In this document: positions 2,525 through 29,747 of the stretch, in pieces
How the letters are laid out: each line of letters starts with the position of its first letter
How positions within the stretch are numbered: position 1 is the stretch's first letter
UHGV virus genome: UHGV-0094961
Origin: a virus
Length of the DNA: 38,929 bases
Strand: one strand, 5' to 3'
Program-made: the position numbers and the translations under genes
The notes under the pieces: generated by a model
The model's database searches: none
Seen by the model: the letters and a program-made list of their open reading frames with translations, nothing else
What the model was told of the DNA's origin: nothing

Positions 2525-4993
2525 ATGATTAGCGCCCTGAATACGGTTGTAGTACCAGAGGAAGCACTGGTGAAACGCCAGCTGGAGCTCGAAGAGACCT
2601 ATAAGATTCGCGGAATCGAGCGGGCACGTAAGCTGATTACGGACGCATTGCAGAACGGCGGGATTATGAACCTGCCGATGACGCAGCGTATGCTCACCTC
2701 GGCATATGAGGTGGCTGCTGCCGCTATCGACGAGATGCGAAACGTCAAAGTCCCGGGCATTGGTGGTAAGTACCGCCGGTTCCTGCGCTTAGTCCCCTTG
2801 GATGTCCTGACCACACTGAGCCTGTGCACAATGTTTGAAGCGTTTAGCGTCGCCCCCGGCGAGTCTGCTAGTCGCCGCCAGACTGCGCAGGCGGTAATGT
2901 CCGCACTGGGCCGGAACGTGCAGTCAGAGCTACTGGCTCTGCAGTTACGCAACGTAGCCCCAGCGTACATGGACCGAGTATATGAGTATCTCACAGAGCG
3001 CCGTACGAAGTCCCCTACGCACATCCTGCGTACGCTCCGTGCCAGTGCCGAGAATGTGCACTATGGGCACGAGCCTTGGACCAATGCCCAGAACATCTCC
3101 GTAGGGCGTCTGCTGTGTGCCGCGGTGTTTGAGACTGGCTTGTTCCAGTGGAAGACAGGTAGCGGGAACCTGAGCATGCTCTACCCGGCTGATGACGTTA
3201 TGGGGGCCTTCCAGAAACTGGTGGAATCTGCCGACACTGTAACGATGAAGCCGCCTATGCTGGTCCCCCCGGTGCAGCACACCACTATGTGGGATGGTGG
3301 GTACCTTACTCCTATCGACAACCGCGGTACGTACCATAACTCGCACATCGACCGCTCCAGGCTGCGTGAAGTGGCGGAAGCATTTAAGTCCGCGGATGGC
3401 ATCAAGAAGGCGCTTAATAAGGCACAGGAAACCCCATACCGTATTAATAAGCGCATACTGGAACTGGTGCAAGAAGCACGGGCCCTGGGTATTGGGATAG
3501 GTATGCCCCGCTCAATACCGGAGCCGAAGCCTGAGTGGTACTTGGATGGTGTACCAAAAGAGAACTACACCGAAGAAGAACTGGACCGCTTCGGTGAGTG
3601 GAAGACGCGTATGTCCCTGTGGTACAGTGCTGACCGTAAGCGTGTGTCGCAACTACGCAGCCTTCTGACTACGTTGGAGATGGCAGAGGAATTCAAAGAT
3701 GAGAAAGCCCTGTACTTCCCGACTTGTGTGGACTGGCGCTACCGCCTGTACTTCAAGTCCTCGTTGCACCCGCAGGGTTCTGATTTGCAGAAGGCTCTGC
3801 TGGAATTCGGTAGAGGTAAACCTCTTGGAGAGAGAGGGTTGTTCTGGCTTAAAGTGCATGTCGCCACTTGCTTTGGTTATGACAAAACCCTATTCGAAGA
3901 CCGCGCAGATTGGGTGGATAAAAATATGGCAGTTGTCCGCTCAGTTGCAGAGAATCCATTTGATTCGGACGCTTTTAAGCAGGCCGATTCACCGTGGTGT
4001 TTCTTGGCAGCAGTGCTCGACCTGGTGGCTGCTCTGGATTCTCCGTGCCCAGAAGAGTACATCTCCAGAACTCCGGTTGCTATGGACGCCACAAACTCAG
4101 GTGGACAGCACCTCTCAGCGCTCCTGAGAGACCCTGTAGGCGGTCGTCTGACGAACCTGTACTGGGAAGGTAACGACAAGAAAGCGGACCTGTACATGGA
4201 CGTGAAGCGCCGCACGGATGAGAAGGTGATACTGGACCTGGACAAGGAGGATTTCGTTATCCAGAGCACGTACTGGAGAGAGAACGAAATCACCCGCAGC
4301 ATGACCAAGCACCCAAGTATGACCTACTTCTACAGCGCCACGGTGCGTAGCTGCAGCGACTACATCTTTGAAGGCGCTTGCGCTGAGGGATACGAGGGTA
4401 CCGATACTAACAGTCTGTGGAACCTGTCGTGCTACCTGGCACCGCGTATGCGCGCCGCTATAGAGGAGGCAAACCCCGCTGCTGCGGCAGTTATGGGGTA
4501 CTTGCAGAATCTCGCTAGACGCGTACCGGCAAGCCAGCACCTGCAGTGGTATACGCCGCTGGGCGGGCTCGTAATGAACCGTTACACGCAGCGTGAAGAA
4601 GTGCGTGTACGTATTGACTGCATGAACCTGTCAGCGGTACTGGTACACAACCGGGACTTCAAAACTTGTAACAAGCGCAAGGCAGCCTCCGGGATTGCCC
4701 CAAACTTTGTGCATAGCCTGGACAGTACGCACTTGATGATGGTGCTCTGCGCTGCGGAGGGGTTGGACATTGTGCCTATTCACGACTCGCTGGCTACTCA
4801 CGCAGCTGACGTCGACACTATGCATAGGCACATCCGTGAGCAGTTTGTGCGTCTATATGAAGAGAATGACCTGCTTGGCGATATTACTCGGGCAGCGGCA
4901 GCAGCCGGGGCAGACTTGACGGACCTGGACATGCCAGAGGTGGGCACTTTGGACATCCGGCAAGTGCTAGAATCCCCGTTCTTCTTCTGCTAA
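2525..4993 (+). CDS. single-subunit DNA-directed RNA polymerase (T7-like RNAP)
   Basis: 822 aa; PVAMDATNSGGQHLSALLRD (T7 motif DGSCSGIQHFSAMLRD) and PIHDSLATH (T7 HDSFGT); AAGGAG RBS 11 nt upstream. Confidence 0.9.
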   Translation: MISALNTVVVPEEALVKRQLELEETYKIRGIERARKLITDALQNGGIMNLPMTQRMLTSAYEVAAAAIDEMRNVKVPGIGGKYRRFLRLVPLDVLTTLSLCTMFEAFSVAPGESASRRQTAQAVMSALGRNVQSELLALQLRNVAPAYMDRVYEYLTERRTKSPTHILRTLRASAENVHYGHEPWTNAQNISVGRLLCAAVFETGLFQWKTGSGNLSMLYPADDVMGAFQKLVESADTVTMKPPMLVPPVQHTTMWDGGYLTPIDNRGTYHNSHIDRSRLREVAEAFKSADGIKKALNKAQETPYRINKRILELVQEARALGIGIGMPRSIPEPKPEWYLDGVPKENYTEEELDRFGEWKTRMSLWYSADRKRVSQLRSLLTTLEMAEEFKDEKALYFPTCVDWRYRLYFKSSLHPQGSDLQKALLEFGRGKPLGERGLFWLKVHVATCFGYDKTLFEDRADWVDKNMAVVRSVAENPFDSDAFKQADSPWCFLAAVLDLVAALDSPCPEEYISRTPVAMDATNSGGQHLSALLRDPVGGRLTNLYWEGNDKKADLYMDVKRRTDEKVILDLDKEDFVIQSTYWRENEITRSMTKHPSMTYFYSATVRSCSDYIFEGACAEGYEGTDTNSLWNLSCYLAPRMRAAIEEANPAAAAVMGYLQNLARRVPASQHLQWYTPLGGLVMNRYTQREEVRVRIDCMNLSAVLVHNRDFKTCNKRKAASGIAPNFVHSLDSTHLMMVLCAAEGLDIVPIHDSLATHAADVDTMHRHIREQFVRLYEENDLLGDITRAAAAAGADLTDLDMPEVGTLDIRQVLESPFFFC

Positions 4994-4998
4994 AAATT

Positions 4999-5017
4999 TA
5001 ATGTTACAGGAGTAGGA
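4999..5017 (+). promoter_or_regulatory. conserved 19-nt motif TAATGTTACAGGAGTAGGA (copy 1), candidate phage-RNAP promoter
   Basis: Exact 17-nt core ATGTTACAGGAGTAGGA present three times in window; this copy sits immediately after the RNAP gene, before the late module. Confidence 0.4.
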
Positions 5018-9877: not shown

Positions 9878-9920
9878 ACCTGGTGCCTTCGGGTGCCCGG
9901 GGCTTTTTTTTTTTTTTTTT
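9878..9920 (+). terminator. putative rho-independent terminator (GC-rich structured segment with UUCG loop candidate, then T17)
   Basis: 17 consecutive T at 9904..9920 after a GC-rich segment; lies downstream of the capsid module where T7-like phages carry their major terminator. Confidence 0.5.
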
Positions 9921-16237: not shown

Positions 16238-19200
16238 ATGGCTCAGTTTCTGAACCAAGAACCGAATCCACAGGAAAAGGATTCTGCTAAGGGCGCAACA
16301 CTTAAACCTGCGCCTGAGCGCGTAGATTGGAACGATGCCGGAGACAACGGCTTAAACGCACTGGAGCGTGCCTCCTTACTGGCGCAGGCCAAGACCCCAG
16401 CTACTACAGCCGGGGAGAGCTTTGCGTCTGGTATGGGTAACAGCATCATCGCCGCAGCTATCCGTAAGGCCTCTGCCCCGGCATTTGACCGGGACCAGAA
16501 CTTTAACGCCAAGCAGACTCTGAGCAGCGATACCAGGGCTAAGCTGTATGCTCCGAATCAGGAAGAGATTGAGTACCTGCACGACTCTGTATCGGTCGAG
16601 GATTACAACTACCGCATGCAGCAGATGCTTGAGCAACGCAACCGTGACCGCTTAATGGCTGACAACACGGTAGCCGGGTTCGCGGGTATGTTGGTGGGTG
16701 ATTCTCCGTTCATCCTGGCCCCGATGTCTGCCGCTGGTATTGCTGGCCGCGCAGGCTTAGCTGCACGGACTGCTATCCGCGCTGCTGACGTAGGCTCCGC
16801 ATTCTATGCGCAGGACCAACTGGGCCAGTCTGCTGCGGTAACTGCACTGGTAGCGGGCGTAGCTGGGTTGGACCAGCTCTGGGATATGTCTAGGGCTGCT
16901 AAAGCTGCTGCTAAGGCCCGTACTGGGCGTGAGCCTATGTTCGACCCAGAAGCGCCTACAACTCGTACAGCGAGGGACGCTAATGTTACAGGAGTAGGAG
17001 AGGGAGAGGAAATCCTTACTAAGACACTGGATGAAAGCATCCAAGTATCTAGAAACAATACCGCCTCCGTGAACATGAAAGCACAGCACGTAGTTCAGTT
17101 CTTGAAGAAGTCCGAACACTTAACAGCAGGCCAGAAGGCTATTCTGGACACGCTGGGCGATGCTGTAAATGACATTGATTTTAAACTGGTAGCAGGCTCC
17201 GCAAACCGCAGCCGCTACACTTACGCACAGCAAGATTTAGCTAAGCGTGGAGAGGTGTCTCTACGCGCACCTACGCGAGCTAATGGCAGCACATGGACTA
17301 CAGCAGGGGACGCACTGCGTGCTATGGATGCAGACACAAGCAGGGTAGCCGTGCACGAACTGATTCATGCCGCCACTGCGCGCGCCGTTGACAGTAACCC
17401 AGAGATTGCTAAGCGCCTGGATGAAGTGCGCGCTGTTATTGCAGCGGACTCCACCTTGACGCCGCGTATGCGGTATTACGCTAGTAATGTGCACGAGATG
17501 CTGGCAGGCTTAGGTGACAGCCCTGAGTGGGTTGAGCATCTGGCGCGGACGAAATCCCCAACCGGTAAGAGCATGCTCCGCCAACTGGGCGAGTACATCA
17601 TGAATGCCCTGGGCATCAAGGCCAAAGGTTCTGCCTTGGAAGATGTCTTGGATGCGTACGAGGACGCCGTTAAGTGGACAGCTAAGGATTATGCAGACCA
17701 AGCCCAGAGCTTCCGTAGTGAAGCCTTCCAGGACCTGGCGGGCAGCACTACCCTAAACGAGGCTAAGGGTGCCCAAGCTATGCTGGATGGCGCTAAGAAG
17801 AAGCTCTCTACTATGTTTGCCCTGTACGATAACATCGCTCAAGGCAATGAAGACTTGGCTAAACTGCTAGTGTCGGATGCGTCCGCAGTAGGCGGCCGTC
17901 GCCCGTCTGTAGTGGACTTCAAGCGCAACCTCACTTTGGAGATGGACGCCAGCGCTAGCGTAGTGGAAGACGCTATCCTGGGCGCGTTGAAGGATAAGGG
18001 TGTAGGTTTCTCTGAGCGCTTCTTCCATCGGAGCAAGTTCCGCGCTGAGCGGGCTGCACTGGAAGACCGCCTGAGCAAGTACCTGGATGCTGCCTACAGT
18101 GCTGATGTAAACGGCCGAGCTGTTCCCGTACCGGATGTAGAGATTGCCCCACTGGTTGACGCCTATCGCCGCTCTGGCTGGGCAGGCAAGTGGCACGAGC
18201 ATATGCTCAATGCTGGTCTGGTGGATGATGGTGCGTTGGTTAAATCCGATTACTACTTCCCGCGTCAGTACAGCTACGACAAGATGCGCCAAGGTATTGC
18301 GCAGGGTAACACTCTGGACGACTACCGCGCCCTGTTCAGGTCCGCCCTGCGGGACGTGTACCCGAGCATGGAGTCAGAGGTAGTGCAGCGTGTTGCAAAG
18401 GAGATGGTTGACGGTATCTACAACGGCCGTGCAGGGCAGTCCGGCCCGATGTGGAAGCAGCTGATTAACGGCATGGGTAACGACGAGGTCGTTATGGCTA
18501 TGCGTAGCGCTGGTGTAGATGAATCTGCAATCCAGAGTTTCCTGGCTGGTAACGTACGCGAATCCGGTAGCACGTCCCCTGCGCGGAACCTGCGTCAGCG
18601 TACTCGGTTCAACATGGACAAAGAGTATCTGGTGAACGGTAAGAGCATGCGCATGCAGGACCTGATGGATACTGATGTAGCCAAGGTTATGCACGGGTAC
18701 ACTAACCGTATGTCTGGGCGTGTAGGCATGGCCTATGCAGGCGTACAGGGCCTGGGCCAGCTAGCTAAGATGATTGATGAGTCTAAGCACGCACTGGCGG
18801 ATTCCGCTAAGTGGGAGAAGACAGTCAATGACACCATCGACTTTATCCTGGGTGGGGCGCCTGCTGACGCCGGACAGCTTCCGGATTTGCTGCGTGCAGC
18901 CGGGAACATGGCTAACGCCACCATGCTTAAGAACTCCGGCCTGTATCAGCTGACTGACACTGCCCTGGCTATGAAGGAGTTCGGTATGGCTAGAGTGCTG
19001 CGTAGTATGCGCGACCAGCCTTGGTTCAAGGAAGGTGCCGTAGCTATCAAGACTCCGGATATGGCTACCCGTCTAGACACTGTACTGCGAGGTAATATCC
19101 AGAAGGAGATGCGCTTCCGCTGGTTGAATACGTACGCCGACGATAACCTGGACCTGACCCGTCAGGCCTCTTGGTTCAATGTAACCCAGAACGTTGGGCA

Positions 19201-20906: not shown

Positions 20907-21209
20907 ATGGCAGGGGCAGCTAAACGCAGTCGCCTCTCGGAGCTGCACCGTATGTTCACCGAGGCCTTGCTTGAAGAAATCAAGCAGTCTAAGGAAGATG
21001 AGGTGCCGCTCCCCGCAGCAGATAAATCGGTCATTGCTAAGTTCTTGAAGGATAACGACATCACCGCGGACGCAGATTCCGAGGAGATGCAGGACCTTCG
21101 TGACGAATTCGATGACGAGCTAGTGGCGCGCAGAGAGGCGCGTAAGCAAGAGATTCTAAATAAAGTTGGTGGTTCAGACTCTGAGGACTTACTAGAAGGA
21201 ATTGTCTAA
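20907..21209 (+). CDS. terminase small subunit (DNA maturase A-like)
   Basis: 100 aa acidic protein immediately upstream of, and start/stop-overlapping with, the large terminase gene. Confidence 0.55.
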   Translation: MAGAAKRSRLSELHRMFTEALLEEIKQSKEDEVPLPAADKSVIAKFLKDNDITADADSEEMQDLRDEFDDELVARREARKQEILNKVGGSDSEDLLEGIV

Positions 21210-23065
21210 TGGTATCGGTGAAGACTGCGCGAAGACTGCGCATGCTCAACCAGAAACTTACTGGTTATAGTGCGAATCCGCGCAGTATTCCCAAAGAGGA
21301 GCGCGAGGATATCGCGGTGATGATGGCCGCGGCACTAAGCGACTTCCGGGAATTCGCGTACATCGGTATGCGGTTCCTGGGCTTTACGCTCACGGACATG
21401 CAGGCCGACATTGCAGAGTACATGCAGAAGGGCCCCCGGAAGCGCATGGTGGCCGCGCAGCGTGGTGAGGCTAAGTCTACACTAGCTGCACTGTACGCCG
21501 TCTGGAGGCTCATCCAGGACCAATCCTGCCGTATCCTGATTGTGTCCGGTGCAGAGAAGCAGGCGTCCGACGTAGCGAACTTAATCATTCGTATGATTGA
21601 GACATGGCCGCTGCTGTGCTATTTGAAGGCTGATCCTACTCGTGGGGACCGTACTTCATTCGAAGGTTATGACGTACACTGTGACCTTAAGCCGCTGGAG
21701 AAATCCGCCAGCGTAGCCTGTGTAGGTATCACTGCATCCCTGCAGGGTAAGCGCGCGGACCTGCTGATTCCGGATGATATCGAGACCACCAAGAATGGTT
21801 TAACGCAAACCCAGCGTGAGCAGCTGCTGATGATTTCTAAAGACTTCGCGGCTATCTGTACGCACGGGGATACGCTGTACCTGGGTACACCACAGACCAA
21901 GGACAGTATCTATAAAACCCTGCCGGGACGTGGCTTCGAGGTCCGCGTGTGGCCCGGGCGCGTTCCGTCTGTTGAAATGGAAGAGCGATATGGAAGTACA
22001 CTTGCTCCTTATATCCTGGAGCTTATTGAGCGCGGCTATAAACGCACCGGCTTCGGAGTCGACGGGACGCTAGGCGAGAGCACGGACACCGGGCGCTATG
22101 ACGAGGATGCGCTGATTGAGAAGGAGCTGGACTTTGGTCCGGAAGGCTTCCAGCTGCAGTACATGCTCGACACCACCCTGTCCGACCAAATGCGTACGCG
22201 CATCAAGCTATCGGATGTGCTGGTTTACTCTGGCAGCCAGGATTCCTCCCCGGAGACGTTCTCCTACATCGCGGACCGCCGGTATCTGTACCAGCACGAG
22301 CATGAAGGGATTATGGGCCAGCAGATGTACTTCCCGGCATTCTACGGGGATATGCACCTTCCGTACCAGCATAAGGTACTGGTAGTGGACCCGGCTGGTT
22401 GTGGTGGGGACGAAGTGTCCTACGCTGCTGGAGGCGCTGCGAACTCGTACATTCACCTATTCTCCGTAGGCGGATTCCAAGGAGGTATCAGCGAAGAGAA
22501 CATTGATAAACTGATTGACCTGTGTGTAGAGTTGGACATCCCGGATATGGTGGTGGAGAGCAATATGGGGCACGGTACCGTGTCTATGCTTATCCTGAAC
22601 CGATTACGTGAGCGGCGTCTCGCCGGTATCGGTGTAAGGGACCTGAATAACTGCACGCAGAAAGAGCGTCGTATCATCGACACAATCAGCCCAGTTACTC
22701 GTCGCCATCGCCTGGTAGTGCATGAGCGTGCTATTCACGACGATATCAGTACCTGTATGGCATATTCCCGCGATAGGCGTTGGCTGTACTCTGCGTTCGC
22801 GCAGTTGTCCGGTATCACGTACGACCGCGGTAGCCTTGCGAAGGATGACCGGGCAGACGCAATCGCCATGATGGTGGCTACGCTGAATGGGCATCTGGTG
22901 GAAGATGAGAAAGTGGTGGCGGAGCGTGAGTCTGAGAAGATGGCTCGGGCCTTCATTGAGAACCCACTGGATTGGGCACAGAGCAAAGTGTCTAAGGGCT
23001 TTCGTGGTGTAGCTGCTCGGCTACATAACCGGGGCAGAGGTAAACAACATAGAGGAAGAAGATAA
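21209..23065 (+). CDS. terminase large subunit
   Basis: 618 aa ORF at the T7 gp19 position; size and position consistent, nuclease and ATPase motifs not verified by eye. Confidence 0.8.
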   Translation: MVSVKTARRLRMLNQKLTGYSANPRSIPKEEREDIAVMMAAALSDFREFAYIGMRFLGFTLTDMQADIAEYMQKGPRKRMVAAQRGEAKSTLAALYAVWRLIQDQSCRILIVSGAEKQASDVANLIIRMIETWPLLCYLKADPTRGDRTSFEGYDVHCDLKPLEKSASVACVGITASLQGKRADLLIPDDIETTKNGLTQTQREQLLMISKDFAAICTHGDTLYLGTPQTKDSIYKTLPGRGFEVRVWPGRVPSVEMEERYGSTLAPYILELIERGYKRTGFGVDGTLGESTDTGRYDEDALIEKELDFGPEGFQLQYMLDTTLSDQMRTRIKLSDVLVYSGSQDSSPETFSYIADRRYLYQHEHEGIMGQQMYFPAFYGDMHLPYQHKVLVVDPAGCGGDEVSYAAGGAANSYIHLFSVGGFQGGISEENIDKLIDLCVELDIPDMVVESNMGHGTVSMLILNRLRERRLAGIGVRDLNNCTQKERRIIDTISPVTRRHRLVVHERAIHDDISTCMAYSRDRRWLYSAFAQLSGITYDRGSLAKDDRADAIAMMVATLNGHLVEDEKVVAERESEKMARAFIENPLDWAQSKVSKGFRGVAARLHNRGRGKQHRGRR

Positions 23066-24873: not shown

Positions 24874-26829
24874 ATGGCGTTAATTAGATTAGTAGCTCCA
24901 GAGCGGGTATTCTCCGACTTGGCGAGCATGGTAGCATATCCAAACTTTCAGGTACGGGACAAGATTAGCCTGCTGGGCAGCGCCGGTGGGGACTTCACCT
25001 TTACTACTGCCGCGTCGGTAGTGGATAACGGAACTGTGTTTGCTGTACCTGGTGGGTATCTACTCCGTAAATTCGTGGGTCCGGCATACAGCTCCTGGTT
25101 CAGCAATTGGGCGGGCATAGTAACGTTCATGAGCGCACCTAATAGGCACCTGGTTGTGGACACGGTCCTGCAGGCCACGAGTGTGCTCAACATCAAAAGC
25201 AACTCTACGCTAGAGTTTACCGATACCGGAAGAATCCTACCGGATGCTGCGGTTGCACGTCAAGTGCTTAATATTATCGGCTCGGCACCCTCGGTGTTCG
25301 TACCGTTAGCAGCGGATGCCGCGGCGGGCAGCAAAGTCATTACGGTGGCTGCCGGGGCTTTGTCTGCGGTAAAAGGTACGTACTTGTATCTTCGCTCTAA
25401 CAAGCTGTGTGATGGTGGTCCTAACACGTACGGTGTAAAGATTTCCCAGATTAGGAAAGTGGTTGGGGTTAGCACCTCCGGTGGCGTCACCAGTATTCGG
25501 CTGGATAAAGCGCTGCACTATAACTACTACCTGTCTGATGCCGCGGAAGTAGGTATCCCGACAATGGTGGAGAACGTAACCTTAGTATCCCCGTACATCA
25601 ACGAGTTCGGCTACGACGATTTGAACCGGTTCTTTACTATCGGTATCTCTGCCAACTTTGCCGCGGACTTGCACATCCAGGACGGGGTTATTATTGGCAA
25701 CAAACGCCCCGGGGCTTCTGATATAGAAGGGCGTAGTGCTATCAAGTTCAATAACTGCGTAGATAGTACTGTTAAGGGTACGTACTTCTACAACATCGGA
25801 TGGTATGGGGTAGAAGTGCTCGGCTGCTCAGAGGACACGGAAGTACACGATATCCACGCCATGGACGTACGCCACGCAATCTCTCTGAACTGGCAGAGCA
25901 CCGCAGACGGGGACAAGTGGGGAGAGCCTATCGAGTTCTTAGGCGTTAACTGCGAAGCCTACAACACAACCCAAGCTGGGTTTGATACTCATGACATTGG
26001 TAAGCGTGTGAAGTTCGTTCGATGCGTTTCGTACGACAGTGCTGACGATGGGTTCCAAGCGCGCACTAACGGGGTAGAGTACTTGAACTGTCGAGCTTAC
26101 CGTGCAGCTATGGACGGGTTCGCCTCCAACACCGGTGTAGCCTTCCCTATCTATAGGGAGTGCCTAGCTTATGACAACGTACGCTCTGGCTTTAACTGCT
26201 CGTACGGCGGTGGCTACGTTTATGACTGCGAGGCTCACGGTAGCCAGAATGGTGTGCGAATCAACGGGGGCCGTGTTAAGGGTGGTCGGTACACCCGCAA
26301 CTCCAGCTCTCACATCTTCGTTACTAAGGACGTAGCTGAGACAGCGCAGACATCCCTGGAGATTGATGGCGTGAGCATGCGCTACGACGGTACCGGGAGA
26401 GCTGTGTACTTCCACGGGACTATGGGCATTGACCCTACCCTGGTATCTATGTCCAATAACGACATGACCGGTCACGGCTTGTTCTGGGCATTGCTGAGCG
26501 GCTACGCCGTTCAACCTACGCCCCCGCGCATGTCCATGAACTTACTGGATGACACGGGTATCCGTGGAGTGGCAACCCTGGTGGCTGGTGAGGCTACAGT
26601 CAACGCCCGTGTACGCGGAAACTTTGGCAGCGTAGCTAACTCCTTCAAGTGGGTGTCTGAGGTTAAGTTGACGCGGTTGACCTTTCCCTCTAGTGCTGGG
26701 GCCTTGACGGTTACTGGCGTAGCTCAGAACCAGGATGTGCCTACACCTAATCCGGACCTAAACAGCTTCGTGATTAGGAGCAGTAACGCAGCGGACGTAT
26801 CCCAGGTAGCCTGGGAGGTGTATCTCTAA
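24874..26829 (+). CDS. tailspike protein, probable right-handed beta-helix (candidate polysaccharide depolymerase)
   Basis: 651 aa; repeated short beta-strand-like segments rich in G/N/V/T/D (NCVDSTVKGTYFYNIGWYGVEV, FVRCVSYDSADDGF, LNCRAYRAAMDGF) suggest parallel beta-helix; lacks T7 gp17 N-terminal anchor; last late gene. Confidence 0.6.
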   Translation: MALIRLVAPERVFSDLASMVAYPNFQVRDKISLLGSAGGDFTFTTAASVVDNGTVFAVPGGYLLRKFVGPAYSSWFSNWAGIVTFMSAPNRHLVVDTVLQATSVLNIKSNSTLEFTDTGRILPDAAVARQVLNIIGSAPSVFVPLAADAAAGSKVITVAAGALSAVKGTYLYLRSNKLCDGGPNTYGVKISQIRKVVGVSTSGGVTSIRLDKALHYNYYLSDAAEVGIPTMVENVTLVSPYINEFGYDDLNRFFTIGISANFAADLHIQDGVIIGNKRPGASDIEGRSAIKFNNCVDSTVKGTYFYNIGWYGVEVLGCSEDTEVHDIHAMDVRHAISLNWQSTADGDKWGEPIEFLGVNCEAYNTTQAGFDTHDIGKRVKFVRCVSYDSADDGFQARTNGVEYLNCRAYRAAMDGFASNTGVAFPIYRECLAYDNVRSGFNCSYGGGYVYDCEAHGSQNGVRINGGRVKGGRYTRNSSSHIFVTKDVAETAQTSLEIDGVSMRYDGTGRAVYFHGTMGIDPTLVSMSNNDMTGHGLFWALLSGYAVQPTPPRMSMNLLDDTGIRGVATLVAGEATVNARVRGNFGSVANSFKWVSEVKLTRLTFPSSAGALTVTGVAQNQDVPTPNPDLNSFVIRSSNAADVSQVAWEVYL

Positions 26830-27126
26830 GTAGCTCTAGAGCTTCCCTGGGGTATCTCTACGGTATCCCGGGGCACTGCTGGGGTGCTGCTGGGGTGCGC
26901 GTCTATACCTGGACCTGAAATTTATTAGACTCACGCGAGCCCCTCCCTCACCCTCAACGCGCCCAATTGCCCCCATAGGGGGGTGCCTAGCGTCAATTTA
27001 GGGGGGGGGGCACTGGTGGGGCCTGCTAGTGCGCACTAGAGCGCCTCAGCGGGCCTGTGCTGCGCTCTAAGGCTATTGCCAGTGCTACCCTATGGCTATC
27101 ACTGTGCGTTCACTAGGGCGCTTCCT

Positions 27127-27151
27127 GTGCGCTCTCTGTGCGCTCTCTGTG
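27127..27151. repeat. tandem direct repeat GTGCGCTCTCT x2.3
   Basis: Direct reading of sequence. Confidence 0.8.
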
Positions 27152-27384
27152 GGCCATAGGGGCGTGCTCTGCCTTGCTTATTTTGTGCGCCTCAGTGGGT
27201 CTGCCTAGTGCCTGTCTAGTGCCCGCGCAGTGGGGCCATAGGGTATGCCTGGTGCTATCCCGAGTGTGCACTAGGCTATCCACTGGCTATCCTTAGTGCT
27301 TTACATTGTGCTAATTATGTGCTACGCTGCGCGCTCCCCACTAGGGCGCACATCCACCACACCGCACTATCCAGCGCTATCCCT

Positions 27385-27414
27385 TTGCTCTTACTTTCAT
27401 TCGAAAGCTATTAT
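27385..27414 (+). promoter_or_regulatory. candidate sigma70-type promoter (TTGCTC-18-TATTAT)
   Basis: -35-like and -10-like hexamers with 18-bp spacer in the non-coding left-end region; host-RNAP early promoters are expected here. Confidence 0.3.
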
Positions 27415-27418
27415 GAAA

Positions 27419-27437
27419 TGATGTTACAGGAGTAGGA
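27419..27437 (+). promoter_or_regulatory. conserved motif TGATGTTACAGGAGTAGGA (copy 3), candidate phage-RNAP promoter near genome left end
   Basis: Same 17-nt core in the non-coding terminal region; no start codon follows. Confidence 0.35.
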
Positions 27438-27705
27438 GGGTTTTAGGGCACTATATACACTACTTAATACTAGTCCTTACTAGTCCCTACTAGGCACTCA
27501 CTAGTATGGCCCTGTGCCTACGTAGTAGGCTGCCATAACTACATAGTCACCGCATCACTACGTTCCTTCACTTACGTTACGTCACTACGTTCTGCTTTAT
27601 GTAGTATTAGATAGTATTGGCTAGACGTGGCTAGTATTGGCTACAGCCAGTGTCAGCACAGTGCTATCCCTAGTGGCTATCCCTATAATATATAAGGAGT
27701 TATAC

Positions 27706-28260
27706 ATGTTACCATCTAGTCGGGCTACGGCTAAAGCCACTGGTAGTACATACTACTACACAGGGAAGCACTGTAAGTACCAGCACACGGCAAAGCGCCT
27801 CACCAGTTCAGGGGAGTGCTCCGAGTGCTTTAAGATTAGGAGTACCAGCCCAGCTACTAAGGAGCGTATGCGGGGGTACCATAAGGTTTATCAGGTACGT
27901 AAGGCAGAGGCCTTGAGAGAGTACCGTAAGACACGCCGACCTAAGCACATTATGACAGAGGAGCAATTACAGCGTAAGGTTCGCCACAATGCGCGATACC
28001 GTGCTGCGCGTACTCAATCCGTACCCTCATGGTATGGCGAGTGGGGTGAGTTTGTTATGTTGGAGGCTATCGCTTTAGCAGCCGAGAGGGCGGAGTGTAC
28101 TGGCATAGCGTGGCATATTGACCATATGCTACCGCTAAAGGCTAAAGAGGTGTGCGGCTTACACTGTGCGGGGAACATTCAGGTGATACCCGCAACGCTT
28201 AATACACATAAGTGTAACAGGCTGCTATTCACGGAGCCGTTGGGGTGGCTAAAGGCATAA
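27706..28260 (+). CDS. HNH endonuclease with N-terminal Cys-rich motif
   Basis: Start set at ATG 27706 (AAGGAG RBS 6 nt upstream) inside track ORF 27637..28260; C-terminal WHIDHMLPL...GLHCAGNIQVIPATLNTHKCN is an HNH-type motif; N-terminal YYYTGKHCKYQH...GECSECF looks like a zinc-binding motif. Confidence 0.6.
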   Translation: MLPSSRATAKATGSTYYYTGKHCKYQHTAKRLTSSGECSECFKIRSTSPATKERMRGYHKVYQVRKAEALREYRKTRRPKHIMTEEQLQRKVRHNARYRAARTQSVPSWYGEWGEFVMLEAIALAAERAECTGIAWHIDHMLPLKAKEVCGLHCAGNIQVIPATLNTHKCNRLLFTEPLGWLKA

Positions 28261-28266
28261 ACTTGA

Positions 28267-28309
28267 GGTAATACAGTACTATAAATGCTGTATTACCTTT
28301 TTTTTTTTT
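28267..28309 (+). terminator. rho-independent terminator
   Basis: Perfect 10-bp stem GGTAATACAG / CTGTATTACC with 11-nt loop followed by 12 T, directly after the HNH stop codon. Confidence 0.75.
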
Positions 28310-28446
28310 ATAAAAAGTGCTTGCTTTTTTAAATCTGCTAGGTGTATATTTATCCCATCGAAAGCGATACGGTCTACCGGGTAGCTCTAGATTCCAGAGT
28401 CAACTGGATAAGTAGACAGCCTGATAAGTCATATGAAAAACAGGTA

Positions 28447-28475
28447 TTGACAATAGCAGTAAACGCTTTTATAGT
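28447..28475 (+). promoter_or_regulatory. near-consensus sigma70 promoter (TTGACA-17-TATAGT)
   Basis: Consensus -35, 17-bp spacer, -10 with one mismatch to TATAAT; in ORF-poor early region. Confidence 0.45.
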
Positions 28476-28724: not shown

Positions 28725-28922
28725 ATGCGCAAAGCAAAGCGTTTAGCTTTACGGCGGAATATGCAGTTATCACTGAATCCCACCGACAACGTGCCACTCA
28801 CTGTGAAGCCAAGTAAACAAGGCCTGAGCTGTGAGCACAGGGTGAGAGGTAAGCAAAAGCAACGTGCTGGCAGTAAACAACCTTCGGGGTGGTCTACTAT
28901 GAATGCACAGTTCGGACACTAA
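28725..28922 (+). CDS. hypothetical small basic protein
   Basis: 65 aa, Lys/Arg-rich; GAGAGGTAAGAAG upstream of ATG; only RBS-supported ORF in the island. Confidence 0.3.
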   Translation: MRKAKRLALRRNMQLSLNPTDNVPLTVKPSKQGLSCEHRVRGKQKQRAGSKQPSGWSTMNAQFGH

Positions 28923-28927
28923 TTACA

Positions 28928-28959
28928 GCCTATAGCATCCTATGGGGTGCTATGTGAAG
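28928..28959 (+). promoter_or_regulatory. conserved hairpin motif copy A (GCCTATAGCATCC-TATG-GGGTGCTATGTGAAG)
   Basis: 9-bp stem (one G-U wobble) with 4-nt loop, followed by GTGAA; 39 nt upstream of ATG 28998; covaries with copy B. Confidence 0.4.
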
Positions 28960-29710: not shown

Positions 29711-29716
29711 TGGCAA

Positions 29717-29747
29717 GCCTATAGCGTCCTACGGGACGCTATGTGAA
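29717..29747 (+). promoter_or_regulatory. conserved hairpin motif copy B (GCCTATAGCGTCC-TACG-GGACGCTATGTGAAT)
   Basis: Perfect 9-bp stem, 4-nt loop; 25 nt upstream of ATG 29772; two compensatory substitutions relative to copy A. Confidence 0.4.

Follow-up and report, generated by a model that had tools for sequence, protein, structure and literature searches.

A predicted genome-end junction with a collapsed terminal repeat in the assembled genome of a KP34-like Klebsiella phage

Both the terminal repeats of the genus Drulisvirus and the promoters of phage KP34 have already been described, and little of the biology considered here is new. For fHe-Kpn01 (MN380459), blunt termini and a 222-bp repeat have been mapped by PhageTerm, restriction digests, and ligation combined with Sanger sequencing (PMC7291057). 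In KP34 (GQ413938), a promoter at nt 475-490 drives the KP34 RNA polymerase (RNAP) in vitro, and in the KP34 group the RNAP gene is expressed later than the replication genes (PMC6834552). The phage promoters of LUZ19 and phiKMV are situated downstream of the RNAP gene, within the structural region, and close to the left end (PMC10914365). The T7 genome begins with a 160-bp repeat that is packed with, and trailed by, short repeats on one strand (11 copies of CCTAAAG within nt 1-340), and its phiOL promoter is found at nt 405 (nt 366-388 in T3), ahead of sigma70 early promoters (A1-A3 in T7). In T7, a replication origin is made up of a phage promoter with AT-rich DNA behind it.

We analyzed a stretch of viral DNA of 38,929 nucleotides (UHGV-0094961; hereafter, the window), which sequence comparison identifies as the genome of a Drulisvirus, a KP34-like Klebsiella phage of the Autographiviridae. 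Wider comparisons found its nearest relatives to be about 91% identical to the window, and more than 240 Drulisvirus records match the junction region with identities of 80-87%. All genes lie on one strand, and their order leads from the last late gene across the junction into the early region. The relevant layout is as follows.

2525-4993: phage RNAP gene
20907-21209: terminase small subunit (PF11123 DNA_Packaging_2, E 5e-19)
21209-23065: terminase large subunit (PF22530 Terminase-T7 RNaseH-like, E 5e-30; phrog_38)
24874-26829, plus strand: last late gene, a K1-capsule lyase-type tailspike, at the right end of the coding genome
26830-26945: right-end unique tail
26946-27169, plus strand: predicted direct terminal repeat (DTR), a single collapsed copy of 224 bp with 63.8% GC, placed by homology to the boundaries of relatives
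27170-27685: left-end unique non-coding arm
27686-28310, plus strand: optional insertion, consisting of an EndoVII/HNH-type endonuclease gene (27706-28260) and an intrinsic terminator (28265-28299 and T-run)

The Pfam and PHROG matches of the two terminase subunits (gp18-like small, gp19-like large) mark the enzyme as T7-type. The tailspike matches the Pfam K1-lyase_N, Rider, and C domains (E 7e-39 to 2e-16) as well as the phrog_18512 tail fiber across its full length, and ends with a TAA stop codon at 26827-26829. The initial annotation had described a repeat-rich, non-coding gap between this gene and a coding region that begins at 27706, and both flanks were found where it had put them. We consider it very likely that 26830-27705 is the junction of two genome ends that were joined in assembly, with the DTR collapsed to one copy.

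The right flank of this gap calls for a different description. The ORF at 27706-28260, whose ATG at 27706 is preceded by a ribosome-binding site (AAGGAG, 27694-27699), matches phrog_1035 (E 6.5e-21), and BUCT631 and BUCT86 carry homologues whose annotation reads putative HNH endonuclease. Alignments to KP34, fHe-Kpn01, and phiKpS2 break off at about 27675-27685 and pick up again near 28905, these three phages being without the endonuclease insert, which P1010 and KX1 have in common with the window phage. On this comparative evidence, the ORF is an optional endonuclease insertion and not a canonical early gene. An ORF does start at 27706, as had been reported, but the statement that the early genes begin there needs to be revised; likewise, the gap is non-coding but does not end at 27705, since the non-coding leader resumes past the endonuclease gene and reaches about 28724.

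That the gap itself holds no credible ORF is borne out by our analysis. The longest ORFs in 26830-27705 comprise 56 amino acids on the minus strand and 52 amino acids on the plus strand, and neither indels nor substitutions follow a codon-like pattern. Among 22 diverged homologues of the junction region, only 25% of the indels are divisible by three, with indel lengths peaking at 1 nt and at 9-12 nt, and divergence lacks a 3-nt periodicity (0.198, 0.214, and 0.198 per phase). It is thus highly improbable that the region codes for small proteins or for a structured non-coding RNA. ORFs of 38-56 amino acids are present, and some database records annotate three to five 'hypothetical proteins' under the homologous stretch, but the curated records of KP34, fHe-Kpn01, and phiKpS2 have no genes there, and we rejected the small-ORF reading on the grounds of ORF sizes, indel lengths, and the lack of codon periodicity. 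Against a structured RNA stand an Rfam search of 26500-28000, which returned zero matches at E<=1, and local folds of 26960-26995, 27140-27190, and 26890-26950 that were no better than those of shuffled sequences (z -0.7 to -1.7; z -0.7 for the left-end element). Since the folds do not exceed the shuffles, hairpins are not claimed as a signal either.

The predicted physical ends of the genome can be placed to the base, and with high confidence, at 26946 (left) and 27169 (right). The left boundary falls between 26945 and 26946 (CCCCTC/CCTCACCC, also given as CCCCTC/CCTCACCCT; the slash marks the boundary), and the right boundary between 27169 and 27170 (GTGCTC/TGCCTTGC, also given as GTGCGCTC/TGCCTTGCTTATTTTG). 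For this comparison we used KP34, fHe-Kpn01, KpV475, SAA231, phiKDA1, and IMG isolate genomes, among them a second record of the 42,201-bp KpV475 genome. Both boundaries are common to nine relatives with annotated or evident DTRs, phiKDA1 sharing the left boundary only, and the right boundary recurs, in two cases shifted by 2 nt, in the Drulisvirus records that bear a DTR. The experimentally mapped genome of fHe-Kpn01 aligns with its nt 1 to 26946, and its last repeat base corresponds to 27169 by boundary-sequence homology, so that the positions predicted here are supported by homology to an experiment. The annotated 216-bp repeat of KP34 maps to 26945-27169, 'redundant region in virion DNA' is noted in the SAA231 record, and the left boundary is also where the KX1 and Cronobacter phage Peggy records end, with that of KpV2883 ending within 2 nt of it. 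Overall, the junction sequence is orthologous to, and 76-87% identical with, that of KP34 and fHe-Kpn01; the order of tailspike, short unique tail, repeat, non-coding arm, and early genes is the same, the left and right repeat boundaries are identical, the CCCCCATAGGGGG element lies at nt 25-38, and the promoter TGATGTTACAGGAGTA at about nt 475. Repeat length differs through unit indels (224 bp in the window phage versus 216 bp in KP34 and 222 bp in fHe-Kpn01); among the relatives it ranges from 192 to 307 bp, with the boundaries fixed.

Database record ends are not uniformly reliable, as the following two cases illustrate. The 141-bp end overlap of KP1-1 was rejected as a DTR; its position is upstream of the junction, and it has the look of an overlap left by assembly. 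In the oddly arranged record of NER40, the deposited 255-bp 'repeat' is 1 nt off at each end and was taken as weak support. We also set aside phiKpS2 as an end reference, its record simply beginning right after the tailspike stop codon.

The window contains the DTR sequence once, whereas KP34 and fHe-Kpn01 carry one copy per end. The collapse of a terminal repeat together with its placement in the middle of a contig is a documented behavior of assemblies (PMC10438801), and an assembly that has been collapsed and artificially linearized is expected to show a single copy at just this place, flanked by the last late gene and the early region; in this respect, the proposal of a permuted or concatemer-type join across the termini agrees with our findings. 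One could argue instead that 26830-27705 is an ordinary internal regulatory intergenic region, with the ends of the genome lying elsewhere, or that the phage packages by the headful mechanism and possesses circularly permuted virion DNA. The window shows no visible duplication, and the termini of the present phage are placed by homology, which leaves some room for this view. We nevertheless regard it as very improbable, since both boundaries agree with the measured or annotated termini of relatives, the terminase is T7-type rather than P22/T4-type, relatives have fixed blunt ends, the last late gene gives way to the early region at this point, and the repeat opens with a T7-like left-end signature. 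These same features sustain the assignment of the locus as the genome-end junction of a T7-like phage. Given this junction, the genome can be re-oriented to start at 26946, with 26946-27169 appended at the right end after 27169; upon completion, the true genome length rises by 224 bp.

Column conservation, computed over the 22 diverged homologues, reveals near-invariant blocks that span both DTR boundaries and the promoter region. The features around the repeat are listed here.

26830-26895, plus strand: variable spacer at the right end, containing the palindrome AGCTCTAGAGCT and a tandem 11-mer, GGGGYRCTGCT (26870-26898)
26896-26945, plus strand: unique, near-invariant right-end block TGCGCGTCTATACCTGGACCTGAAATTTATTAGACTCACGCGAGCCCCTC, adjoining the predicted left cut on its upstream side (conservation 0.88-0.90)
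26946-26990, plus strand: left-end signature CCTCAC-N18-CCCCCATAGGGGGGTGCCTAG, with a C5-ATA-G5/6 element at 26970-26983
27099-27151, plus strand: tandem 11-mer array inside the DTR (TCACTGTGCGC family, 4.7 copies; exact CTGTGCGCTCT twice)
27146-27185, plus strand: near-invariant block over the right boundary (GGGCCATAGGGGCGTGCTC/TGCCTTGCTTATTTTG; conservation 0.85-0.97)

The spacer is poorly conserved (0.43-0.55 identity per column among the 22 homologues). The adjoining block at 26896-26945, by contrast near-invariant, is also recognizable just ahead of the annotated repeats of Koutsourovirus phiKDA1 and Limelightvirus LIMElight; we consider it a candidate terminase recognition site, which presumably occupies the position of pacB of T3 and T7. 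The block at 27146-27185 is likewise a candidate for the right cleavage signal, and binding and cutting by the terminase at these conserved blocks may constitute their pac function. Between them, the DTR is variable in length because indels among the homologues peak at 9-12 nt. The modest additions of our study to what is known are this variation of the repeat interior in units of 9-12 nt between invariant boundary blocks, and a likeness to T7 over about 45 bp that points to an old, conserved terminase signal.

This likeness rests on the first 45 bp of the DTR, which are identical to T7 nt 1-45 at 27 of the 45 positions, a value that none of 20,000 shuffles reached. In both phages, YCTCAC stands at the very end and CCCCCATAGGGGGTRCCTA at nt 25-43, and the form common to the two is YCTCAC-N18-CCCCCATAGGGGG. 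The signature at 26946-26990 is 100% conserved in drulisviruses, and CCCC(C)RTAG is found at the same offset in SP6, T3, and phiKMV, although these three versions are weaker than the T7 match. The resemblance to the left end of T7 that had been noticed earlier therefore goes beyond analogy, the more so as a phage-RNAP promoter occupies the phiOL position (see below). T7 and the window also share a T7-type terminase and a repeat rich in short units, but the units themselves are unrelated (CCTAAAG in T7; CACTAG, GCTATCC, and CCATAGGG in the window), and the right boundary reads TGTGTCCCT/ATCTGTTA in T7 and T3, which we take to be a class II pause signal, versus GTGCTC/TGCCTTGC in the window. In phiKMV (Krylovirinae), the DTR opens with TCCC...-N-CCCCCGTAGG at the same offset and is followed by CCTTGCC, similar to TGCCTTGC in the window; its repeat of 414 bp is nearly twice as long, and extended nucleotide similarity to phiKMV and LUZ19 is absent.

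To the right of the repeat, the left arm and leader contain the following elements.

27253-27350, plus strand: near-invariant block with three GCTATCC copies (27254, 27275, 27286; conservation 0.83-0.99)
27300-27328, plus strand: candidate sigma70-like element TTTACA-N17-TGcTACGCT, 100% conserved
27419-27434, plus strand: strong phage-RNAP promoter TGATGTTACAGGAGTA with predicted start G27435, the counterpart of T7/T3 phiOL
28447-28475, plus strand: predicted sigma70 promoter TTGACA-N17-TATAGT with 11 of 12 consensus matches, the only strong one by consensus

The sequence at 27419-27434 matches KP34 nt 475-490 exactly, and its assignment as a promoter is supported by homology to the KP34 experiment. 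It is the predicted target of the cognate RNAP, reads rightward, and is situated between the repeat and the early genes, as expected of a phiOL-type promoter whose in-vitro basis comes from KP34. Lying 474 nt from the predicted left end, it corresponds in position to phiOL of T7 and T3 (phage-RNAP promoter about 400-470 nt from the end, then sigma70 early promoters), whereas its specificity is that of the KP34 RNAP. The only other copies of this sequence in the window are found at 4999 (immediately past the RNAP gene) and at 16981. Promoter position 10 (A or C) agrees with that of the internal promoters in all ten genomes compared, and near-invariance extends beyond the 16-nt element by about 45 nt on its upstream and 30 nt on its downstream side. 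LUZ19 P001 is leftward and antisense across the junction (PMC10914365), whereas the left-end promoter of the window is rightward; phiKMV and LUZ19 possess a host promoter cluster near the left end, to which the candidate sigma70 elements of the window would correspond.

The initial annotation had also likened the gap to the left-end repeat arrays of T7-like genomes, early promoters included. A sigma70 consensus scan of 26500-28400 found no plus-strand promoter within 26830-27705, and a terminator scan of the same interval yielded nothing beyond one weak terminator-like site, located at the right boundary; the counts of both scans were at the shuffle level. The one strong consensus match (28447-28475) is located outside of the gap and ahead of the first conserved early genes, which occupy 28725 onward, while the element at 27300-27328 lies inside but below the scan threshold (3 of 6 matches in its -10 hexamer) and may be active as a promoter. 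Comparable host promoters have been predicted about 900-1200 nt from the left end of KP34-like phages (PMC4411677; also the KP34 record). In contrast to T7, the sigma70 scan found no leftward A0-type promoter in the window repeat. A literature search on Drulisvirus transcriptomics found nothing useful.

From these elements, a course of events can be proposed. A T7-type terminase would act on replicative concatemers that hold one repeat per junction, presumably by recognizing the conserved blocks that straddle both repeat boundaries, and would cut bluntly at 26946, thereby creating the left end of one genome, and after 27169, where the genome before it would end. Repair synthesis would then duplicate the repeat, so that both ends of every virion DNA would carry one, as in T7. 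After injection, the host RNA polymerase would begin early transcription at sigma70 promoters of the left arm, for which 27300-27328 (weak by consensus) and 28447-28475 (strong) are the candidates; later, the phage RNAP would fire from 27419-27434 and transcribe the phased arrays (units of 10-14 nt) as well as the early region. For annotation and for the engineering of therapeutic Klebsiella phages, the left-end phage promoter and the flagged endonuclease insertion are the points that matter.

The short repeats that had drawn attention to the gap are real and unusually dense. In 26830-27705, the excess of 8-mer copies amounts to 58 (76 in T7), compared with 11.9±5.4 (maximum 39) in other 876-bp windows and 14.9±5.3 (maximum 32) among 1000 first-order Markov simulations. 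Relative to the rest of the window, CACTAG/CTAGTG is enriched 35-fold, GCTATCC 37-fold (six copies on the plus strand, none on the minus strand), CCATAGGG 87-fold, and CTAG 10-fold. Not one but four 11-mer arrays were located, alongside other tandem arrays.

26870-26898, 27099-27151, 27201-27223, and 27269-27292: tandem 11-mers
27468-27505: tandem 10-mer, TACTAGTCCT, 3.7 copies
27555-27592: tandem 14-mer, 2.8 copies
27602-27643: tandem 10-mer, TAGTATTGGC, 4.2 copies
27468-27643, plus strand: lower-GC segment (38-53% in 60-nt windows) with helically phased arrays, downstream of the phage promoter

Outside of the boundary blocks and promoters, these repeats could be products of slippage or unequal recombination, tolerated as spacer without sequence-specific function. 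The 9-12-nt peak of the homologue indels equals whole repeat units, repeat length varies while the boundaries stay fixed, and the array interiors show the lowest conservation of the region (0.47-0.73); slippage seems to account for most of the evolution of the interior 11-mer arrays. As an account of the short repeats in general, however, we find this explanation doubtful. Many single motif copies are 90-100% conserved among homologues that are only 69-84% identical overall, namely GCTATCC at 27254, 27275, 27286, and 27376, CACTAG at 27339, and CCATAGGG at 26973, 27154, and 27236. Moreover, GCTATCC is strictly strand-specific, with copies spaced 10-13 nt apart (about one helical turn) just upstream of promoter-like elements, and CTAG-containing words, avoided in the rest of the genome (1.9 per kb), reach 18.3 per kb in the junction. 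Our best guess is that the short repeats are phased protein-binding or DNA-bending sites that may aid junction processing or promoter use. TrpR-like operators, considered as a model for the ACTAGT array, were dropped; the spacing is 10 nt rather than 8.

As a function in addition to, and not in place of, that of a genome-end junction, the phage promoter (27419-27434) and the lower-GC array segment (27435-27650) might form a transcription-activated replication origin like the secondary origin associated with phiOL of T7. The promoter is validated in KP34, the GC content falls to 38-45% at 27360-27510 and 27570-27660, the array periods of 10-11 nt match the helical repeat of DNA, and the near-invariant flanks of the promoter exceed its own need. 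Iteron-type features are partly represented by a segment of 38-45% GC and by phased arrays with units of 10-14 nt, but column conservation across the arrays at 27468-27643, a segment predicted to be transcribed, is low (0.47-0.73 among the 22 homologues), and an initiator gene was not identified. The number of units also differs in fHe-Kpn01, which visibly has more of the TAGTATT type. Late expression of the RNAP gene in the KP34 group fits poorly with RNAP-primed first rounds of replication, GC-skew gives no signal, and experimental origin mapping was not found in the literature for any phiKMV- or KP34-like phage. An origin role of the junction region is therefore conceivable but, in our estimation, unlikely. 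Equally speculative is the joint proposal that the promoter, some 75 nt of unusually invariant flanking sequence, and the phased arrays in the lower-GC DNA downstream constitute the transcription-activated replication origin of KP34- and phiKMV-like phages and that YCTCAC-N18-C4-5ATAG3-5 is a terminase cleavage determinant across the family, from T7 to Drulisvirus.

Two minor features of the junction that had been pointed out beforehand were recovered as well. The C-rich and then G-rich blocks correspond to a switch in GC skew from -0.39 at 26910-26969 to +0.32 at 26970-27059, with a run of ten G residues at 27001-27010. Where one palindrome had been reported, there are two perfect ones, AGCTCTAGAGCT at 26832-26843 and CTAGTGCGCACTAG at 27026-27039.

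BLAST searches of a database of 50,697 phage records matched the window to more than 240 Drulisvirus records (KP34-like, Slopekvirinae, Autographiviridae), with an identity of ~91% over the surrounding 25 kb and of 80-87% in the region 26830-27705 itself. All substantial ORFs are located on the + strand, in the order RNA polymerase, structural genes, terminases, lysis cassette, tailspike, gap, small early genes, and replication genes. Since the linear genomes of these phages do not run late-to-early in the virion as the window does, the source sequence is permuted or joined across its ends.

Genes ordering the window
2525-4993, + strand, RNA polymerase gene
20907-21209, + strand, T7-type small terminase gene
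21209-23065, + strand, T7-type large terminase gene
24874-26829, + strand, K1-lyase-type tailspike gene (stop codon 26827-26829)

The initial annotation had described the sequence between the end of the late genes at 26829 and the next ORF at 27706 as non-coding and packed with short repeats, and our data agree: the tailspike gene stops at this position, the ORF at 27706 possesses a good ribosome-binding site, and the longest ORF in the gap comprises at most 56 aa. We aligned the region with 22 homologues (69-84% identical) for coding and conservation analysis. In this alignment, the three codon phases diverge equally, and of the 405 indel events, only 25% have a length divisible by three; the length distribution has peaks at 1 nt and 9-12 nt. 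An Rfam search of the region gave no match. Excess 8-mer copies amount to 58, compared to 11.9±5.4 in other windows of equal size and 14.9±5.3 in Markov simulations, and CACTAG/CTAGTG, GCTATCC (+ strand only), and CCATAGGG are enriched 35-, 37-, and 87-fold, respectively. The tandem 11-mers and the C-rich then G-rich blocks were recovered as well, together with tandem 10-mers and 14-mers and two perfect palindromes where one had been claimed.

The genome of phage fHe-Kpn01 is blunt-ended with a direct terminal repeat of 222 bp, as determined by PhageTerm, restriction mapping, and ligation with Sanger sequencing (PMC7291057). Its nt 1 (CCTCACCCTGAACG...) aligns to window position 26946 (CCTCACCCTCAACG...), and its repeat (...GGGCGCTC) ends on the base that corresponds to 27169 (...GCGTGCTC); the annotated 216-bp repeat of KP34 maps to 26945-27169. 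End repeats are likewise present in IMG isolate genomes (exact, 192-282 bp; one is the same 42,201-bp genome as KpV475), KpV475 (243 bp), SAA231 (268 bp; redundant in virion DNA according to its annotation), and the Koutsourovirus phiKDA1 (267 bp). They have the repeat start ...CCCTC/CCTCACCCT in common (the slash marks the boundary), and the repeat of the drulisviruses ends with ...TGCGCTC/TGCCTTGCTTATTTTG, offset by 2 nt in two of these records. The KX1 and Peggy records break at the left boundary, and that of KpV2883 at most 2 nt from it. Because each boundary sequence occurs once in the window, one collapsed 224-bp repeat can be placed at 26946-27169; such collapse and mid-contig placement is documented for short-read assemblies of T7-like phages (PMC10438801). 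The late-to-early order and the boundaries shared with relatives support the proposal that the window is joined or permuted across a genome-end junction, and the region is orthologous to a feature known from the KP34 annotation and from measurements in fHe-Kpn01. Homology to these experiments in relatives now places the predicted termini to the base; the main value lies in correct orientation and annotation of the genome, and the general interest is low.

In the metagenomic contig IMGVR_UViG_3300045988_019900, the last 240 nt comprise long poly-G/poly-C junk and then the repeat start in inverted orientation, which halts exactly at the left terminus (…GAGGGTGAGG). This arrangement probably arose as an artefact of assembly or sequencing at the physical end of a DNA molecule and incidentally supports the terminus position. 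NER40 (L007, MZ602146) carries an attached 255-bp repeat within nt 1-1244, with the junction region present again at 450-1244, and the 141-bp end overlap of KP1-1 (L008, PQ571298) maps upstream of the true junction. The deposited ends of NER40 and KP1-1 look unreliable.

Against the background identity of 69-84%, the alignment contains four near-invariant blocks.

Conserved elements of the gap
26896-26985, near-invariant block spanning the left boundary
27146-27185, near-invariant block spanning the right boundary
27253-27350, near-invariant block
27300-27328, candidate sigma70-like element TTTACA-N17-TGcTACGCT, fully conserved
27376-27465, near-invariant block

In phiKDA1 and Pantoea phage LIMElight, the upstream half of the first block (...CCTGAAATTTATTAGACTCAC...) is still recognisable immediately ahead of the annotated repeat. 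Least conserved are the arrays at 27466-27650 and the interior of the repeat. Between fixed boundaries, relatives have repeats of 192 to 307 bp, and the indel sizes suggest that the length changes mostly by single 9-12-nt units. The GCTATCC copies, which are conserved and strand-specific and lie about one helical turn apart upstream of promoter-like elements, suggest protein binding, whereas the variable arrays more closely resemble products of slippage.

The likeness to the left end of T7 proposed in the initial annotation is real and extends to architecture, terminase type, and, in part, sequence. Aligned ungapped, the 45-nt start of the repeat and T7 nt 1-45 agree at 27 positions, which none of 20,000 shuffles achieved; both possess YCTCAC at the terminus as well as CCCCCATAGGGGGTRCCTA at nt 25-43. 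In T3, SP6, and phiKMV, CCCC(C)RTAG occupies the same offset, and phiKMV carries CCTTGCC after its repeat (compare TGCCTTGC in the window). Although its repeat-unit sequences are unrelated, the left 876 bp of T7 are equally repeat-dense (8-mer excess 76; 11 one-strand CCTAAAG copies).

Concatemers, terminase cutting, repeat duplication, and left-end-first entry are established T7 biology. By analogy and homology, replication would most likely yield concatemers in which each junction holds a single repeat; the terminase, which is of the T7 type, would recognise the conserved blocks around both boundaries and cut at 26945/26946 and 27169/27170, and the repeat would be duplicated so that each packaged genome has a copy at both ends. 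Upon infection, the left end would enter first, host polymerase would initiate at left-arm promoters, and the phage polymerase would later use a promoter at 27419.

KP34 RNA polymerase uses T(A/G)ATGTTACAGGAGTA, found in KP34 after the RNA polymerase gene, in the structural region, and as a TGATG variant at nt 475-490; both variants are active with it in vitro (Lu et al., PMC6834552). The window contains exactly three copies (4999-5014, 16981-16996, and 27419-27434); the last, located 474 nt from the predicted left end, has the TGATG variant and is a putative promoter by homology to the KP34 experiments. Its positional counterparts are phiOL of T7 (nt 405) and of T3 (366-388); the left-end phage promoter of LUZ19 is oriented oppositely (PMC10914365). 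Position 10 is either A or C, depending on the drulisvirus, and left-end and internal copies agree in 10/10 genomes with both copies readable, a small set of related genomes (among them the window and loci L007, L008, L013/L029, L022/L034, L024/L052, L025, L047/L058, and L050/L064). This fits promoter-polymerase co-evolution, and the split may track two noted groups of RNA polymerase specificity loops (PMC4411677). A transcription-activated origin formed by this promoter and the lower-GC arrays is possible but unsupported. The KP34 'weak' promoter also occurs inside the RNA polymerase gene (4946-4965, one mismatch).

The initial annotation had let the early genes begin at 27706 and had likened the gap to T7 arrays that carry early promoters; both points need refinement. 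A sigma70 consensus scan found no + strand promoter within 26830-27705, where the conserved element at 27300-27328 is a candidate; a near-perfect sequence lies outside, where host promoters of KP34-like phages are predicted (PMC4411677). An ORF does begin at 27706, but the conserved early genes start at 28725.

Features downstream of the gap
27706-28260, EndoVII/HNH-type endonuclease ORF (phrog_1035 match, E 6.5e-21)
28265-28299, strong terminator after this ORF, followed by a T-run
28447-28475, near-perfect sigma70 promoter sequence TTGACA-N17-TATAGT

Homology to KP34, fHe-Kpn01, and phiKpS2 ends at ~27675-27685 and restarts near 28905, while the insert (27686-28310) is common to P1010 and KX1; the endonuclease is also found in BUCT631 and BUCT86. 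The ORF is therefore an optional and probably mobile insertion in the non-coding left arm. In SAA231 and KpV71, an HNH gene instead lies between the tailspike gene and the repeat, on the opposite side of the latter; thus, homing endonucleases seem to land preferentially in the genome-end region.

Two early intergenic positions (28927-28958 and 29716-29747) hold copies of a 32-nt element, AGCCTATAGCRTCCTAYGGGRYGCTATGTGAA. This element was predicted as a phage promoter (PMC4411677) and failed to drive KP34 RNA polymerase in vitro (PMC6834552). Each copy folds into a hairpin with a stem of 10 bp and a loop of 4 nt (z -3.9 and -4.9), and the two differ by compensatory changes (GCAUCC/GGGUGC versus GCGUCC/GGACGC), which points to an RNA-level element, e.g., an RNase III-type processing or stabilising hairpin. 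In the structural region, a T17 homopolymer at 9904-9920 lies downstream of the capsid gene; it probably represents the T-tail of the Rho-independent terminator reported as conserved between the structural genes (PMC4411677).
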